Part shown: positions 11,719-36,387 of the stretch, in pieces | How the letters are laid out: each line of letters opens with the position of its first letter | How positions within the stretch are numbered: position 1 is the stretch's first letter | Position numbers and translations under genes: made by a program | The notes under the pieces: generated by a model | Seen by the model: the letters and a program-made list of their open reading frames with translations, nothing else | Database searches by the model: none | Told to the model about the DNA's origin: nothing | Assembly: GCA_963921275.4 (NCBI GenBank) | Contig: OZ001293.3 | Span: 4,480,001 to 4,544,000 of the forward strand | Source of the DNA: an uncultured Hormoscilla sp. | GTDB lineage: Bacteria; Cyanobacteriota; Cyanobacteriia; Cyanobacteriales; Desertifilaceae | Length of the DNA: 64,000 nt | Direction of reading: 5' to 3'

Positions 11719-12589
11719 GGATGGGGTCGAGCCGGGAATCGCTTCCCGACCCTCCCTTTCGGAACCGGACTTGCGATTTTCACCGCATCCGGCTACTGGG
11801 TACTAGGCCCTTTTCATAGGTAGACTTAATAGGAATTACTTCCGTTAGCCCTTGCCGCCTGTCTTTTCTTCCCTTTCCTGGTTTAGCGAGTGGTTGTTCT
11901 GATAACCGTTAGTATCACCATTTTCAAGTCAGTTTTACCAGTTATCCATACCTTATCCTCCACTTGCGTTTCGGATTAGTTCCGTGGCTTTTTAGGATTA
12001 CTCATTCCAGCAGCTTCCTAGTATCACCGACCCACGTCAGCGCTGGCTACCCAGCATCATCTACATTACTGTAGATGTTATCCCAGGAATTACCCCGGGC
12101 ATTCGCTTCTTGGGCCATCCCTCCCCCCGTGGCTTGCGCTTAACATCTAACTTGTCCTGATGGACAGCACACGAGAGGTTACTTCGTTCCCTAACAACAT
12201 TTCGCGATACCTTTAGGTCCACACTATACCCCGGGAGCTATTTGAGTACTATATTAGCCAGAGTCTAAAACTAATACTAGCTACCATTTCCTTTTTAGGC
12301 CAGCGCATATAGCCTTATTTCGCTGGTTCCTTATAACGAGGCTTGCACATGTTTGCCTGCTCTAACCTTGGATATCTTTCCTAGCGGCGTCACCGGCTTA
12401 GGCTGCCAGTTATCCTACATTTGAGTCCTCGCTTAGCACCACGATGATGTCGCTTCGTAGCACCGAGGACCGGTGTCACCCCCGTACCTGGGGGGAGGGG
12501 AATTTAACCCCCATGCGGTCAGAGTTCCCGGCTAATGAAACCGGGCTAGCGTTCCGTGTTTGACCACGTTAGGCTAGAACGAATCGCAC
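11719..12589 (-). ncRNA. ORF-less group II intron I1 (IIB/chloroplast-like type), full length, 871 nt, intergenic and antisense to flanking genes
   Basis: The minus strand starts GTGCGATTCGTTC. D5 is AGCCGGATGCGGTGAAAATCGCAAGTCCGGTT and D6 has a bulged A (…GCTCGACCCCATCC). EBS1 AGACTC pairs perfectly with the 5' exon GAGTCT. No RT ORF. The 3' end is 11721 if the canonical AY is used. Confidence 0.93.
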
Positions 12590-19840: not shown

Positions 19841-19914
19841 CGGGGCTGATGGGATTTGAACCCATGACCTAGCGCTTAGGAGGCGCTCGCTCTCTCCAAC
19901 TGAGCCACAGCCCC
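19841..19914 (-). tRNA. tRNA-Arg (CCT)
   Basis: GGGGCTGTGGCTCAGTTGGAGAGAGCGAGCGC-CTCCTAA-GCGCTAGGTCATGGGTTCAAATCCCATCAGCCCCG forms a cloverleaf. Confidence 0.95.
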
Positions 19915-20016: not shown

Positions 20017-20103
20017 GTTAGGGGTCGAGCTGGGAATCGCTTCGGAACCCTCCCATTCGGAACCTGAAGAGCGACTTTCACCGCACACGGCTACTGGGTA
20101 GTT
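20017..20103 (-). ncRNA. Group II intron 3' remnant I2 (end of D4, D5, D6 only)
   Basis: AGCCGTGTGCGGTGAAAGTCGC…GGTTCC D5 and D6 ending GCTCGACCCCTAAC. Confidence 0.88.
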
Positions 20104-28783: not shown

Positions 28784-30227
28784 ATGTCTCTGTGCGATTC
28801 GTTCTAGCCTAACGTGGTCAAACACGGAACGCTAGCCCGGTTTCATTAGCCGGGAACTCTGACCGCATGGGGGTTAAATTCCCCTCCCCCCAGGTACGGG
28901 GGTGACACCGGTCCTCGGTGCTACGAAGCGACATCATCGTGGTGCTAAGCGAGGACTCAAATGTAGGATAACTGGCAGCCTAAGCCGGTGACGCCGCTAG
29001 GAAAGATATCCAAGGTTAGAGCAGGCAAACATGTGCAAGCCTCGTTATAAGGAACCAGCGAAATAAGGCTATATGCGCTGGCCTAAAAAGGAAATGGTAG
29101 CTAGTATTAGTTTTAGACTCTGGCTAATATAGTACTCAAATAGCTCCCGGGGTATAGTGTGGACCTAAAGGTATCGCGAAATGTTGTTAGGGAACGAAGT
29201 AACCTCTCGTGTGCTGTCCATCAGGACAAGTTAGATGTTAAGCGCAAGCCACGGGGGGAGGGATGGCCCAAGAAGCGAATGCCCGGGGTAATTCCTGGGA
29301 TAACATCTACAGTAATGTAGATGATGCTGGGTAGCCAGCGCTGACGTGGGTCGGTGATACTAGGAAGCTGCTGGAATGAGTAATCCTAAAAAGCCACGGA
29401 ACTAATCCGAAACGCAAGTGGAGGATAAGGTATGGATAACTGGTAAAACTGACTTGAAAATGGTGATACTAACGGTTATCAGAACAACCACTCGCTAAAC
29501 CAGGAAAGGGAAGAAAAGACAGGCGGCAAGGGCTAACGGAAGTAATTCCTATTAAGTCTACCTATGAAAAGGGCCTAGTACCCAGTAGCCGGATGCGGTG
29601 AAAATCGCAAGTCCGGTTCCGAAAGGGAGGGTCGGGAAGCGATTCCCGGCTCGACCCCATCCAACCATTGCCGACCTAGAACAACTCCAAACCCAATTGG
29701 CTGATGCCCATCTTGATTACAAGATGGAATTAGTCGATGGTAAAATTATCATTATGGGACTTTCAGATTATCTTTCTGAAGAAATCATCGCTCGATTAAT
29801 CACTTTTCTCAATATCTGGATACTTCCCCGCAAGTTGGGACGAGTCACTGGTTCTTCTGCTGGCTTCAGACTGCCCGATGGCAACTTGCGCGGACCTGAT
29901 GTCTCTTTTGTCCCCGCTGAGAAAATGCGTCAATCTCCTAGGAGTTTTGCGGAAATTGTACCAGACTTGATGTTTGAAGTTAGGTCTTCTACAGATAATG
30001 TTAGACCACTATTACAGAAAATCCAGAGATTTATCGAATTGGGGACGCAAGTTGGCATATTTGTAGACCCCAAAAATTTGACCGTAACTGTTTATCGTCC
30101 TACTGCCGAACCTATTCTGCTCAAAGATGATGATATCTTAACTATACCCGAATTCTTGCCCGGTTGGGAATTGCCCATTGACCAAATCTGGCCTCCAGTT
30201 TTTGCACCAGAAAATATTCAACCGTAA
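28784..30227 (+). CDS. Uma2/DUF820-family endonuclease split by intron I5 (exon 1 28784-28791; exon 2 29663-30227)
   Basis: GGAG RBS, then ATG TCT CT | A ACC ATT GCC gives MSLTIADLEQLQ…ELVDGKIIIMG…GFRLPDGNLRGPDVSF…PDLMFEVRS. Confidence 0.8.
28792..29662 (+). ncRNA. ORF-less group II intron I5, full length, apparently identical to I1
   Basis: GTGCGATTCGTTC … GCTCGACCCCATCC; same length, and by eye the same sequence as the reverse complement of 11719-12589. Confidence 0.93.
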
Positions 30228-31210: not shown

Positions 31211-33092
31211 ACATCGCCGTGGTGCTAAGCGAGGACTCAAATGTAGGATAGCTGGTAGCCTAAACCGGTGACTCCGCGCTTGTTAGATGCCCAAGGTTAG
31301 AATAAGCGAACCTATGTAAACTTCGTAAATGGGAACCGGCGAAATAAGGCTTTATGCGCCGGAGACAAAAGTCAATGTAGTTAGTGTTAGTTTTGTACTT
31401 TGGCTAACATCGTACTCGGATAACTACCGGAGGAAAGTAGGGGCCTAAAGGTATCGTGAAATGATATCAGGGAACGAAGTAACCTCTCGTGAGCTGTCCT
31501 CATATGGACAAGTTAGATGTAAAGCGCAAGCCACGAGGGGAGAGATGGCCCAAGAAGCTAATGCCTGGCGGTGTCTGGAGCATGCCGTATCCCTTGCGGG
31601 AGCGCCAGCCGTTCGCGGCAGCGCGGCGCCAGCCGTGTCCTTCAGGACAAGAGCATGCGGAAGACGCCGGGTAATTCCTATGGATATGCTGACGTGGGTC
31701 GGTGATAGATAGAATCTTTGGGTGAAAGTAGCCTTAAATGTTCTAGACCAGGAGAAATCCTAGGTAGTTAATTTTGGACTAAAGACCTAACCGGGTAAAA
31801 CTTGGAGAACCTAGTAAATTAACTCAAGTTGCGACCTATAAAAATTGGATACAAAAAGCTATGATAAAGAGAATTATTTTCAACTCTAATCCCTTAGATG
31901 TAACAGCATGAATTGACTTGGGAAACAAATTTGTGATTCGACTAAAACAGGTTTCAACTTGTTTTCTTGTTACTTTTTGTATATATTCAAAACAAGAATA
32001 TTCTTTTCTTTTTGAGTTCTTTTTTCGCAAAGGTTTTAACATTATACTTGACGACTCTTTTAGTAAATCCTCTAATTGATAATCATTATAAGCTTTATCT
32101 CCATAAACTATTGAATTTGATGGTAAGTCAAAGCCAAAAGATTGCAAAACTTTAACATCATTATAACTACCAAGATCTAGATAAAATTATATTGGCTTTC
32201 CATTTTTGTTTACCAACATATGAACTCTTAATCCATAAAAATAACGTTTTTTACTGGCAATATACCCTCGATATTCTTCCTTGTTATAAATTTGGCATCT
32301 ATCAATCCTAATATTATCACATACTGGCACCGGGAAACTATCAAGAATATATTCTTGACCCGGATTGAGCTCTTTAAATGTTTGAGCTATAACTTGGAAG
32401 AAAAACATCCAAATTGGTTCCTCAATATTGTGTAATCGACGATTGAACCTACTTTTACTTAACAGATTTTTTATATACTTGTGTTGGACCATAAATTGAC
32501 AAGAGCGATCGTGGTGTCCTCCGAAAAAATATGCAGCAACTAATCCGACTGTCATCACTTCGGCATTGTTCATTTTTACTTGTGGATCTTCTTTTATATT
32601 TAACGCTTTTAGTAGCTCGTCACAAAGAACAAAAATTGTTGTAATCATATCTTCCATCATCTACATCCCCCAGCAATTAACTATTATTTTAGTACATTAT
32701 AACCTATAAACAGCCAACCCGCCGTCTAGCACAAAAAAAATATAATTTTGTATCAAAAGCTACGAAATATCCCAAATATCTGTAAAGTCTAAGTGGGTAA
32801 TTCATATTTTTTTAATAGGTCGCAACTTAGGTTAAATTAGGTAAATGTTAGTAAAGAGCGGTCTATATGGGTTGGTACTGTTATCCCCCGCGAACCTTCC
32901 GGAGTTAAGCATTTATCTAGTCTGAGACTAACCATAAGGGGTTCCATTGCATGAGGAAAGGAACAAAGGGAGTAATCCTGAGTAATTCTACCCATGACAA
33001 GGGCTATCTACCCAGTAGCCGTGTGCGGCTCCAGTCGCATGCACGGTTCCTCAAGGGAGGGTCGGGAGGCGACAATAGGCTCGACCCCGACT
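31211..33092 (+). ncRNA. 5'-truncated ORF-less group II intron I6 with an IS982 insertion in D4
   Basis: Homologous to I5 from ~nt 140; EBS1 loop GTACTT; D3 GGCCCAAGAAGCTAATGCC; D5 AGCCGTGTGCGGCTCCAGTCGCATGCACGGTT (loop mutated); end TCGACCCCGACT. Confidence 0.87.
31822..32832 (-). mobile_element. IS982-family element, copy 2 (nonsense codon at 32187)
   Basis: Same TIRs as copy 1; TSD TAAATTA; transposase split into 32187-32660 and 31836-32147. Confidence 0.92.
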
Positions 33093-33120
33093 TCCTTAGT
33101 CTATGACTTTTTTAAGGCTA

Positions 33121-33993
33121 GGGTGTGTCATCAATCAAATTGCTTGACAGAAATAGATGGATACGGTATGGAGTCCTTATCCAGCAATAACAATCAAGAG
33201 GGCATGATATGAGACGCTATGGCTTGCGAGACGACCAGTGGGAACGGATCGAACACCTTTTACCTGGTAAAGAGGGTGACCCAGGCGCTACAGCCAAGAA
33301 CAATAGATTATTCGTGTTCTGCCGTGTTATATCGATATCGTGCTGGCATTCCCTGGCGGGATTTACCGGAGTGTTTTGGGGATTTTCGGGTTGTTCATAC
33401 CCGCCATACCCGTTGGTCTGAAAAGGGAGTTTGGAAGCAGGTATTCGATGTCTTGGCCTCAGACGCCGATAACGAATACGCCGCGATTGATGCCACCATC
33501 CTGCGTGCCCATCAACGAGCGTGCGGGTGCAAAAAAAAACACCCTCAGATACGTGCGAAACCCAAGCCATAGGCCGTAGTAAAGGGGGACTATCGACAAA
33601 GATTCATGCCACTTGCGATTGCCCAAGGCAATCCCACAGGATTTCATCTTACCCCTGGCCAAGCCCACGACGGGAAAGGCGCTGACGTGCTATTGGATAA
33701 AATCGGTGAGATTGGCGCGCTGCTTGCAGATAAAGCCTATGATGCGGAACAACGTGTGCTCGAGCGCCTGAAAGAGGCGGATTGGATGGCTGTCATTCCT
33801 CCAAAAAGTAACCGCACAGAACACAGAGAATACGATGAAGAAATGTACAAGTGGCGGCATCTAATTGAAAATCTATTCCAAAAACTCAAGCAATACAGGG
33901 CTCTGGCGACACGCTACGATAAAACGGCTCGCAATTTCTTGGGTGCCATCTACCTCGCGGCAGCTGTAATATGGCTTAATTGATGACACGCCC
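33121..33993 (+). mobile_element. IS5-family element (frameshifted orfA)
   Basis: TIRs GGGTGTGTCATCAAT / ATTGATGACACGCCC; TA duplication; [14 protein letters not shown] and …RALATRYDKTARNF. Confidence 0.92.
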
Positions 33994-34001
33994 TAGTTTC
34001 T

Positions 34002-35387
34002 GGTCGGGGTCGAGCTGTCCCTCGCGGGACAATCCTCCCATTCGGAACCTGAAGAGCGACTTTCACCGCACACGGCTACTGGTTGGTAAACCCTTGTCAC
34101 GGGTAGGATTACTAGGGATTACTCCCGTTGTCCCTTGCCCTATGAAATATAGCCCCTTTATGGTCAGTCATGAACTAGTTGAGTACCTAACTCCGGAAGG
34201 TTTACGGGGGAGAACTAGAAAACCACTATGACCGTTCTTTACTAACAGGTGCCCGTATGGGGCCTCTAAATTTTTTACCCGGTTAGGATTTCAGTCCATC
34301 ATTACTACCTAGTGTTGCCACTGGTTAAGCACGTTTAGAGGGCTACTATCTCCTAGAGCTTTTTACCATATCCGTCCTACGTCTGCATATCCACAGGCAT
34401 TACCCCGGGCATTAGCTTCTTAGGACCTCCCTCCCCACGCGGGCATGCGCTAGGCGCTGCGCGCACGCTACGACGCACATCTGACTTGTCCATCTGGACA
34501 GCACCGCTCTTGTCCGGAACGTTCCCTGGTATCATTTCACGAGGCTTTTAGGTCTCCCCTATACACCGGCAGTCATTTCGGGTACGATATCAGTGACTTT
34601 CACCGCACACGGCTACTGGGTAGTTGGTCCTTGTCACTGGTAGGTAACTTCGGGATTACTCCCGTTGTCCCTCGTCTCATGAGATTTGGCCCCTTGAGCT
34701 TATCCATCTCTGACAGGTTTCCCCCGAGCTGTAGGCATATTTAGGGCTACTTTTACCCAAGACTTCCAACTATCACCGACCGACGTCTGCATATCCCAGG
34801 CGTTACTCCGGGCATTTGCTTCTTAGGCCATCTTTCCCATTCGCGGCTTGCGCTTCACATCTGACTGGTCCTTTAGGACAGTACACGAAGGGTTACTTCG
34901 TTCCCTGGTCTCATTTCACGATGCCTTTAGGCCCCTACTTTTCCCCGGCAGTTATTTGGGTACAATGTTAGCCAATTCCCTAACTAACACTAACTGCATT
35001 AACTTTTGTTCCAGCGCATTAAGCCTTATTTCGCTAGTTGGGTTTAACGAGGTTTACATAGGTTCGCTTGTTCTAGCCATGGACATCATCGAGCGCGAAG
35101 TTACCGGCTTAGGCTGCCAGCTATCCTACATTTAAGTCCTCGCTCAGTACCACGGTGATGTTACTCCGCAGCGCCGAGGACCGGTGTTACCCCCGTACCT
35201 GGGGAGGGGGAATTAAACCCCCATGATTACCAGAGTTCCTAGTTTCCTAGGCCAGCGTTCCGTATATGACTACGTTAGGCTGGAACTCATCGCACGGGAA
35301 TTTAACCCTCATGGCACCAAAGTTACCTGGCACATAAGACCAGGCCCGATTTTCACCATTACTGGTTTACATCAGAACGAGTCGCAC
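34002..35387 (-). ncRNA. ORF-less group II intron I7, outer member of a twintron, internally deleted
   Basis: 5' GTGCGACTCGTTC at 35387 (92 nt before I8); 3' part ~34595-34002 with D1 end, D2-D6, and terminus GCTCGACCCCGACC. Confidence 0.85.
34595..35295 (-). ncRNA. ORF-less group II intron I8 nested in D1 of I7; lost the 3' half of D5 and D6
   Basis: Starts GTGCGATGAGTTCC; EBS1 GGGAAT pairs with the preceding ATTCCC of I7; breaks off after AGCCGTGTGCGGTGAAAGTC. Confidence 0.87.
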
Positions 35388-35550
35388 CATATGATTTACC
35401 CTGGATGGATATTCGCGCAAGCGTAAGAGTCATGATACAGAATTCTGATTACGTTTTTCCGCTAGGACATCGGTTAAGTATTATCATTGACCGGGTTTTT
35501 TGACTGACTCTCTAGGTGCTTTCGCGCCTGGGAAGCACTCTTCGTGCTTA

Positions 35551-36387
35551 CTACGAACGGGGCGATCGATCGTAACCGAGACTGATTTTACCAGGTTCTA
35601 GGTAAATTTCTGACCCTGGTGCCCCAGAAGTGGGGTTGAGGCGAACCCGCAGCTTTCCGCAAGCAGAAATTCCCGTGACCAGGCCCGGATGGCCATCTAC
35701 CAGGACTGGACGGGCCATGCTGGTGAGCAGTTGTTGGTAAGATGACAACAAATTCCCCATGGGTTGCAGTTGGGCCTGCTGGTATCCCCAGACTATTCCT
35801 TGCAAGGTCATAGCTGCTAGCTTTTCTAGGGATGTTACGAGTGGCCGTGGGTCTGAGGCCAGGAAGCTTTTGAGGTTGATACCGATTTCCGGTACAGGAT
35901 TTTCCCAGTTTATCCCCACCCCGACTACGACTTTGGTAATTTGGCCCCTCTGGACGCGGGTTTCGGTGAGTATGCCGCCCAGTTTGCGATCTTTGAGAAT
36001 AATATCATTGGGCCACTTCAGTTGCACGGGAATCCTGGGTTGGTCTGGATCTGAACTACTGGGAAGTTGGCGCCAGGTTGTGGCAATGCCCCAGGCACTG
36101 CTAATTGTTAGCAGTAGGGCATTCTGGGCGCCCATCTTGGGGGTGAGTGCTAGGGAGAGGTATAATCCACCGAGAGGCGATCGCCATTGGTGTCCGCGCT
36201 GTCCCCGACCTGCGGTTTGCTGGGCGGCGATGACGACTGTTCCTTCTGTTGCTCCTCGGTCAATTAGCTCCCACAGAACGCTGTTAGTCGAACTAACTGT
36301 ATCATAAATGTGGAGCACAAAGGGAAATGGGCATGTTGACTCTTGCTTGAGGGCGTTTTTTAAAAGATCGCGATCGATTCTCACCAT
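35551..36387 (-). CDS. birA: Biotin--[acetyl-CoA carboxylase] ligase
   Basis: SSTN, QTAGRGQRG, KWPND, KLGGIL, GVGIN. Confidence 0.95.
   Translation of the reverse strand: MVRIDRDLLKNALKQESTCPFPFVLHIYDTVSSTNSVLWELIDRGATEGTVVIAAQQTAGRGQRGHQWRSPLGGLYLSLALTPKMGAQNALLLTISSAWGIATTWRQLPSSSDPDQPRIPVQLKWPNDIILKDRKLGGILTETRVQRGQITKVVVGVGINWENPVPEIGINLKSFLASDPRPLVTSLEKLAAMTLQGIVWGYQQAQLQPMGNLLSSYQQLLTSMARPVLVDGHPGLVTGISACGKLRVRLNPTSGAPGSEIYLEPGKISLGYDRSPRS

Follow-up and report, generated by a model that had tools for sequence, protein, structure and literature searches.

The element analysed here lies at positions 34,002 to 35,387 of a 64,000-nucleotide (nt) stretch of the genome of an uncultured Hormoscilla sp. 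(GenBank assembly GCA_963921275.4, contig OZ001293.3, positions 4,480,001 to 4,544,000 of the forward strand), referred to below as the window. Read on the minus strand, it opens with the 5' end of a host group II intron (I7), is interrupted after 92 nt by an inner intron (I8), and closes with the 3' part of a third intron (family X). The locus is very probably an inactive remnant of three nested introns that lack open reading frames (ORFs), and I8 a member of a small family that would retrohome, by means of its exon-binding site (EBS) guides, into a domain 1 (D1) hairpin of resident introns. Every intron end used was verified by direct reading of the sequence, and positions elsewhere in the genome are given with the prefix C1.

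Anatomy of the locus

The I7 5' end (GTGCG) was read directly on the minus strand at 35387. The I7 stub was 96.7% identical to nt 1-92 of an empty 914-nt I7 copy (C1:2751471-2750558), versus 72.8% to nt 1-92 of X. In that empty copy the target is free (GGGTTAAATTCCC followed directly by TCCGCC), and its EBS1 loop, CATATG, agrees with the window 5' exon (...TCATATG). I8 begins with GTGCG at 35295, directly after GGGTTAAATTCCC and 92 nt inside I7, exactly where the original prediction had placed it. It was 95.4% identical over nt 1-698 to an intact copy of the I8s type (C1:4581308-4580556, 753/754 nt), retaining the 5' strand and loop of domain 5 (D5) and lacking the D5 3' strand and domain 6 (D6). 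The piece that follows (34002-34597, 596 nt) was 99.3% identical to X nt 345-943, versus 76.8% (global alignment) and 73.7% (BLAST) to true I7. I8s nt 1-698 aligned to 35295-34595 and X nt 345-942 to 34597-34003, with a 3-nt overlap (GTC) at the join.

The 10-nt flank CAGAAACTAG 3' of X in the window was the same as that 3' of X in a paralogue (C1:6224910-6225849), and the empty I7 reads GGG followed by AGAAACTAG at the X insertion point. Because an I7 remnant lies immediately 3' of X, X is placed as a former resident of I7. An intact paralogue at C1:6223364-6226211 consists of I7 with the long I8 variant (I8L) after nt 92 and X after nt 552, its I7 being 99% identical to the empty copy. Since X in the window has the same 3' flank as in this paralogue, the ancestor of the window locus is best read as I7 carrying both I8 and X. 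The 914-nt host would have been invaded twice, by I8 after nt 92 and by X after nt 552. An illegitimate deletion at the 3-nt microhomology would then have removed the I8 3' end, I7 nt 93-552 and X nt 1-344, and an IS5-family element and an antisense intron would later have hit the remaining I7. The features are collected in Table 1.

Table 1. Features of the intron remnant and its surroundings, in window coordinates.
Feature	Position	Strand	Remark
Host intron I7, nt 1-92 (5' GTGCGAC)	35296..35387	-	3' limit is the target hairpin
Target motif GGGTT-AA-ATTCCC, GGGTTAAATTCCC	35296-35308	-	Intron-binding site 2 (IBS2) 35304-35308, IBS1 35296-35301
Inner intron I8, nt 1-698 of a 754-nt element, I8s type	34598..35295	-	
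I8 EBS2 AACCC, in segment CTCGTT-AAACCC-AACC	35040..35044	-	Column covaries with flank -13..-9
I8 EBS1 GGGAAT, loop of GTTAG/CTAAC hairpin	34975..34980	-	Column covaries with flank -6..-1
I8's own D1 hairpin motif GGGTTTAATTCCC, then C; unoccupied	35208..35220	-	
Deletion junction, GTC common to I8 D5 loop edge and 3' strand of X EBS1 stem	34595..34597	-	
Third intron, family X nt ~348-943 including D5 and D6; X 5' part deleted	34002..34594	-	
X domain 5, atypical 3' strand GCTCTTCAGGTTC	34045..34077	-	Sequence reading
Nine nt of I7 (about nt 553-562) directly 3' of X	33993..34001	-	
IS5-family insertion sequence (IS), ~880 bp, two ORFs, inside I7	33118..33997	+	Pfam DUF4096, DDE_Tnp_1
I7 nt 558-585, beyond the IS	33093..33121	-	BLAST of empty I7: 96.6% over 29 nt
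3' part of another group II intron, opposite orientation, adjoins I7 nt 585	32833..33092	+	
Abundant-family intron, EBS1 AGACTC	28792..29660	+	Free motif 28871-28883, then C
Second abundant-family intron	11721..12589	-	Free motif 12498-12510

A complete inner intron within a complete outer intron is not present at the window locus: the I8 3' end is missing, and I7 is reduced to nt 1-92, about 553-562 and 558-585. A scan of 34002-35387 against Rfam gave nothing at gathering score, the sole entry being a D1-D4-2 match at 35104-35222 (E 0.36), and the sole minus-strand D5-D6 match in this interval was the X 3' end at 34003. As it stands, the locus reads as a dead, IS-hit fossil of three introns, at which neither I8 nor X nor I7 could be active.

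The IS5-family element has about 35 genome copies at 99% identity or more. The I7 piece beyond it (nt 558-585) shares about 5 nt with the other I7 remnant, consistent with target-site duplication by the IS. The antisense intron part gave a sub-gathering D5-D6 match (33014-33091, 29.9 bits) and BLAST matches to 3' parts of other introns; it is cut at 32833-32840 by a second IS, whose DDE_Tnp_1_3 fragment scored 26.6 bits, just under the 27-bit cut-off. The first ~340 bp of this second IS (at or below 32840) gave roughly 100 matches, at 98-100%. On the other side, 164 nt upstream of the locus, is a BPL_LplA_LipB-family ORF (35551-36387, minus strand; lipoate/biotin-ligase-like); the locus itself forms part of an accumulation of mobile elements. 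A repeat of about 50-60 nt at 35509-35568, upstream of I7 and overlapping the 3' end of the ligase-like ORF, occurs at 15 other genome sites at 86-98%. Elsewhere in the window, a tRNA gene (19841-19914, minus strand) lies about 100 nt from a 77-nt fragment (20021-20097) that is 94.8% identical to I7 nt 835-911.

Guides, target and insertion sites of the I8 family

EBS columns were taken from a MAFFT alignment of 287 intron 5' regions (432 BLAST high-scoring segment pairs in the genome, 287 of them reaching the 5' end). The EBS1 column covaried with positions -6 to -1 of the 5' flank and the EBS2 column with -13 to -9 in at least eight families; AGACTC/GAGTCT occurred with TAAGG/CCTTA in 140 of the 287 copies, and TGCACT/AGTGCA with TCTAG/CTAGA in 72. 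Because this loop column covaries with the 6-nt flank in so many families, the EBS1 assignment goes beyond chance, and both I8 guide columns are taken, on covariation, to be true exon-binding sites. EBS1 and EBS2 of I8 are complementary to GGGTT-nn-ATTCCC over 11 positions. Direct reading confirmed two earlier claims, that the EBS1 loop GGGAAT is complementary to ATTCCC and that the motif recurs in I8 itself and in other introns, here the two abundant-family introns of Table 1.

The target motif spans a small D1 hairpin (stem GAGGG/CCCTC in the empty I7), from its 5' strand through the loop to its 3' strand. Folds of related 5' regions predicted this hairpin just 3' of a three-way structure of about 60 nt at the intron 5' end. 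The motif lies about 75-92 nt from the intron 5' end, in domain 1, rather than in domain IV or an intron ORF. Because insertion splits this G-C hairpin, the host should need the inner intron removed before it folds.

Twelve genome copies with a GGGAAT EBS1 hairpin were found (up to four substitutions allowed). The original prediction had named a preponderance of such copies in non-intron DNA as the outcome that would tell against it. Eleven stood directly after GGGTTA[AG][AG]TTCCC, 85-93 nt into a host intron with a visible GTGCG, two of these hosts having a 5' end interrupted or clipped by another element, and one stood in unique DNA, an outcome in favour of the prediction. Two further I8 5' fragments (C1:1387525 and C1:5243199) lie at the intron hairpin, which brings the junctions located in introns to 13 of 14, and GTGCG was present as the 5' boundary at all 14. 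The junction pattern GGGTTNNNTTCCCGTGCG occurred 14 times in the genome, versus 0 for the reversed control, and 13 of the matches were I8. The fourteenth (C1:5258757) has a different backbone, EBS1 GAGAAT and EBS2 AACC, and occupies the same D1 hairpin site; its host starts at about C1:5258647, and it is interrupted by an AT-rich IS.

The copy in unique DNA (C1:5978581-5979573) is an I8L element 99.8% identical to the other 993-nt copies. It has no intron similarity around it and follows a look-alike, ATGAGGGCAAGATTCCT, that matches 14 of the 17 target positions. It fits rare pairing-guided insertion and would argue against intron-intron recombination as the insertion route. The match at this site includes ATGA at -17 to -14, upstream of IBS2, a single case that hints that I8 may recognise positions beyond IBS2.

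Intact I8 copies have a canonical D5-D6, scoring 47.9 bits against RF00029 for I8L (loci L027 and L029) and 45.2 bits for I8s (L026), with gathering at 40. All four ends were found in nested order at seven loci (C1:371314, 1428599, 1540259, 4581401, 4584451, 5193306 and 6223364), and a complete twintron also lies at C1:6622023-6625993. No open frame ran well across both sides of the ligated exons of seven intact twintrons, so the hosts look intergenic or placed at gene edges. I8 elements measure 754, 895 or 994 nt and, as predicted for an ORF-less inner intron, none of the 75 genome matches to the maturase domain (GIIM) lies inside any I8 copy. As to the serial nesting that had been proposed, multi-layer nests exist but involve other families. 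Self-nesting was not observed: all 13 GGGTTTAATTCCC sites that run on into CCTCC, as I8's own does, were free genome-wide. A contig of run X5 (a second study, with its organism under a different code) joined the I8 5' end and 17 nt of the hairpin (window 35272-35312) to a different host 5' part, a weak hint that I8-in-hairpin junctions exist in another data set.

The three inner copies of the 993/994-nt variant (I8L) were 99.3-99.7% identical to one another and their hosts 67-81%; because of this difference, the I8 insertions are considered independent, a line of argument applied before to Thermosynechococcus (PMC2882425). The hosts occur in at least nine sequence and exon contexts, with differing 5' exons. 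Empty sites were found for two host families, in host copies otherwise 99% identical, and showed clean insertion: the empty I7 matched the filled locus at nt 1-92 and 93-552, and an empty copy of O, an ORF-less ribozyme (C1:1143255), was compared with an I8-filled copy (C1:6622023). The proposal that the inner intron is programmed to a conserved motif of the introns themselves is supported by the 13 of 14 junctions at the D1 hairpin, the at least nine host contexts and the empty sites.

The exact 13-mer GGGTTAAATTCCC occurred 247 times in the genome and 0 times for the reversed control. The broader pattern GGGTTNNNTTCCC gave 388 sites on the chromosome, 14 occupied and 374 free, and 342 of the free sites had GTGYG 73-108 nt upstream. 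The base at +1 was C in 206 of these free in-intron sites and T in 136; in ten intact copies the first 3' exon base was T in eight, C in one and G in one, the last being the copy in unique DNA. In the most abundant family, where +1 is C, none of the sites examined was occupied.

In four genomes of the same genus the exact 13-mer occurred 13, 5, 5 and 3 times (versus 247 here), with no junctions and a best I8 identity of 78%; these genomes are also intron-rich, yet carry far fewer copies of the D1 13-mer. An exact 20-mer junction had no matches in a search of other genomes' contigs. A looser junction pattern gave eight single matches in 150 other genomes of the order, none with GTGCG 85-95 nt upstream; they were set aside as fortuitous, lying in unrelated sequence that mostly looked coding. 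Across the searched genomes, the I8 family is confined to one, the genome in which its target is most abundant.

In the 7.03-Mb genome a home-made D5-D6 profile gave 471 matches (402 reaching the 3' end) and a 5'-end profile 443, beside 75 maturase-domain matches; these are raw matches rather than curated introns. The intron load is put at roughly 450 copies. The genome of Thermosynechococcus elongatus reportedly has 28 introns. A 2022 survey gave 101 as the largest number of group II introns in any prokaryote genome (PMC8919778).

We infer splicing and mobility of the I8 family from these sequence features. Excised I8 RNA would reverse-splice into a DNA copy of the D1 hairpin, guided by EBS2 and EBS1 and usually before T, probably with a +1 contact. 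Target-primed reverse transcription would follow, by a reverse transcriptase supplied in trans, as established knowledge of such introns suggests. Of the 75 GIIM matches, 22 lie in stop-free frames of at least 550 aa. A candidate helper is a 592-aa protein with RVT_N, RVT_1, GIIM and HNH domains, encoded by a 2392-nt intron, Q, which is inserted directly after GGGACAATGAGAGTAAT in front of D5 of ribozyme O. The D5-D6 of Q itself scores 54-61 bits, and O matches I8 at 90-92% identity at its ends. The composite of O with Q inside hosts I8 in its D1 hairpin at C1:6622023-6625993 (L026); a 99.4-99.9% identical copy at C1:1143255-1147412 is empty. Q was also found alone, inside an IS (C1:5054162-5051771).

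Counter-evidence and alternative readings

Several observations weigh against a three-intron remnant left by a mobile, hairpin-targeting family. Short-read contigs of four runs over 33900-35500 break at repeat borders, and none of the listed pieces spans 34595-34597 by 31 nt on each side, so that this junction is known from the assembly. The exact 3' ends of the inserts are ambiguous by 1 nt, the inserts being one pyrimidine longer than ...GAC or ...TAA. In three empty/filled comparisons (I7/I8L, O/I8s and I7/X) the insert extended one pyrimidine beyond the ...CCCCGAC or ...CCCCTAA end given by the D6 alignment, the observed ends being ...GACT, ...TAAT and, for X, ...GACC; either the 3' splice site is one nt beyond the expected position or integration adds a base. 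T is favoured at +1 to a modest degree (Fisher p 0.013, against 136 T and 173 C at free sites), which may serve as a lead only, the copies being related and their counts hence not independent. Of the 388 sites only 14 are filled, and T also stands at +1 in about 136 of the free in-intron ones; the I8 family would therefore be weakly active, recent, or restricted by further features.

The best-surviving alternative, itself improbable, is that the fusion at 34595-34597, and perhaps other mosaic joints, arose in assembly among near-identical repeats. The region is made entirely of repeats, and the listed contigs of the four runs end at 34595-34597, at 35295/35296 and at other repeat borders, with no listed piece across the junction. 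Contigs built from short words, however, break at repeats whatever the truth. The joint connects non-homologous positions, a D5 loop and a D1 stem, through three shared nt, which repeat collapse would not yield, and the chromosome was assembled as a single 6.88-Mb contig despite hundreds of repeats. A true deletion remains the preferred reading.

A single ancestral composite, copied by segmental duplication or by whole-twintron mobility, is very unlikely to account for the shared I8 junction in place of repeated I8 insertion. Composite mobility does seem to occur in this genome: O with Q inside stands at two differently flanked sites, the copies being 99.4-99.9% identical, which suggests that this composite moves as a unit; X occupies one and the same poor-match site of I7 both in the window and at the 6223-kb locus; and the hosts at C1:4581401 and C1:4584451, 141 nt apart, share an identical 93-nt 5' part. 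Against a single copied composite stand the divergence of the I8L hosts beside their near-identical inner copies, the number of host or exon contexts, the empty sites in hosts otherwise 99% identical, and the I8L copy in non-intron DNA, whose flank differs at 3 of 17 positions. Repeated insertion of I8 remains the preferred reading.

Entry at the RNA level would involve reverse splicing of I8 into a host transcript followed by cDNA synthesis and recombination, with no retrohoming into DNA. RNA targets would be abundant, given hundreds of transcribable introns, and the measurements made here do not discriminate RNA from DNA targets. The target would, however, be sequestered in a G-C stem in RNA, the copy in unique DNA shows no sign of an intron transcript, and a resident intron-encoded protein has an HNH endonuclease domain, as expected for priming at a DNA target. 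Retrohoming is established to favour DNA targets. We give this route little credence and keep DNA-level retrohoming as the working account.

Least credible of all is a two-intron twintron, with I8 in I7 and one internal deletion that brought the I8 D5 loop up against the EBS1 stem of I7 itself: the junction does lie where the first reading placed it, between a D5 loop and the 3' strand of an EBS1 stem, and I7 and X (76.8% identical) are easily confused by eye, but the 3' piece is X (nine full copies in the genome) by the identities given above, the stub is I7, and nine I7 nucleotides follow X exactly as in the intact paralogue. The original prediction thus holds for the position of the join, for its D5-loop and EBS1-stem partners and for I8 lying inside I7; the stem belongs to X rather than to I7, and the locus is a three-intron remnant rather than a simple twintron with an internal deletion.

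Family X, module exchange and known twintrons

Family X has nine full copies at 96-100% identity at different sites (e.g., C1:564725-565667). Eight of these were at 99.2-100%, and the common target consensus was GTAAGA-n-GCA, with insertion directly after it. Its D5 3' strand is atypical, GCTCTTYAGGTTC instead of GCAYGYRCGGTTC, with three mismatches in the lower helix beside the catalytic bulge; the X D5 was unable to form the canonical lower helix (fold z-score 0.10). From its copies, X looks recently mobile despite this D5. Direct pattern counts in the genome gave 318 canonical-like and 32 atypical D5 sequences, the atypical form occurring in X, in I7 and in families around C1:5193306 and C1:5258757.

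The three I8 variants (753/754, 894/895 and 993/994 nt) were 98-100% identical from nt 1 to about 400 and then diverged sharply. Compared in 50-nt windows, two of the 3' parts were about 98-100% identical to introns outside the I8 family (C1:1436761-1437523 and near C1:861960-862932), whose guide sequences differ from those of I8; the third was 90.5% identical to I7, a known host. The 5' module that bears the guides has thus been joined by recombination to several backbones, at a point just 3' of the EBS1 hairpin. Combinations of 5' (about 400 nt) and 3' modules from different families were also seen elsewhere, with breakpoints clustering just 3' of the EBS1 hairpin (also C1:1428685-1429579). 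It is tentatively possible, though doubtful, that twintrons act as recombination reactors joining the portable I8 guide module to the catalytic 3' halves of at least three lineages, I8 being a parasite of parasites that throttles its hosts. If so, recombination between inner and host introns would create new mobile lineages, with I7, itself a host, among the donors of 3' halves, and I8 could throttle host proliferation by splitting D1, its hosts including the composite intron that encodes a reverse transcriptase.

In T. elongatus, the ORF-less F3 introns (TeI3a-e, i) lie inside F1/TeI4 introns, and their mobility was shown experimentally (Mohr, Ghanem, Lambowitz 2010, PMC2882425). They resemble I8 in being cyanobacterial, ORF-less and multi-copy, in having near-identical inner copies within diverged outer introns, and in entering other group II introns at a single conserved site, where EBS/IBS pairing is good (PMC2882425). 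Reverse transcriptases mobilise F3 in trans (PMC2882425), the route presumed for I8; F3 mobility is experimental, whereas that of I8 is deduced from sequence. The authors noted that twintrons expand the non-essential DNA offering new target sites (PMC2882425). The growth of the target pool with the family, as put forward in the original prediction, is supported as an idea and is not new, being already in print (PMC2882425, PMC4424553). The F3 site lies between two start codons of an intron ORF in domain IV, or its remnant, and leaves the ribozyme core unbroken (PMC2882425). The I8 site, unlike this ORF-tied one, is a D1 hairpin of nearly all resident families (388 sites), and its occupation splits the host ribozyme.

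For Methanosarcina acetivorans, the title of the paper reportedly places the targets in related intron ORFs, in contrast to the domain-1 hairpin used by I8. The nests of that archaeon were ascribed to repeated homing into other group II introns, which provide a perpetual homing site (Dai and Zimmerly 2003; PMC4424553, PMC2882425). Site-specific homing into introns, nests without coding exons around them and recombination deletions are common to both systems. The Methanosarcina nests are archaeal and up to five deep; those described here are cyanobacterial and of mixed families, and self-nesting was not seen. In the Tery_4732 twintron of Trichodesmium erythraeum, the inner intron lies in host domain 1 and the splicing order was shown experimentally (Pfreundt and Hess 2015, PMC4649490). 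It shares with the present nests cyanobacterial group IIB-type introns starting GUGCGAUUC, a D1 insertion and an atypical domain V in one partner (PMC4649490). It requires sequential splicing (PMC4649490), and by analogy the I8 hosts should too. It differs in being a single conserved locus in a protein gene, with both partners carrying ORFs for intron-encoded proteins and a site adjacent to the theta element; as described in that source, and unlike I8, it does not form a multi-copy family aimed at other introns (PMC4649490). In Euglena chloroplast twintrons (Copertino and Hallick), the inner intron must often be removed before the outer one can fold (PMC4424553). They are introns within introns like the I8 nests, but organellar, of degenerate group II/III type and in essential genes, and no evidence was seen in PMC4424553 of one family programmed to a conserved ribozyme motif.

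Intron-into-intron homing and target-pool growth are already published for Thermosynechococcus and Methanosarcina. A literature search, not exhaustive, found no description of a domain-1-targeting intron family and nothing pairing Hormoscilla with 'group II intron'. New elements are a target in the D1 ribozyme core, a mosaic 5' targeting module and, as the setting, a genome with roughly 450 intron copies. Standard targetron-type assays could test the defined 13-nt target and its +1 preference directly.

The I8 family would be a retroelement that makes its own niche, two short guides having been redirected to a structural motif that none of its relatives can give up, so that each expansion of the intron population adds neutral landing sites. 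With the target in the ribozyme core, unlike the earlier ORF and domain IV targets, host splicing would depend on prior removal of the parasite. A cyanobacterial genome that is closest to metagenome-assembled genomes of sponge symbionts and holds several hundred introns may offer a rich system for the study of intron proliferation, module shuffling and tolerance of atypical catalytic domains, questions that are tied to the origin of spliceosomal introns.

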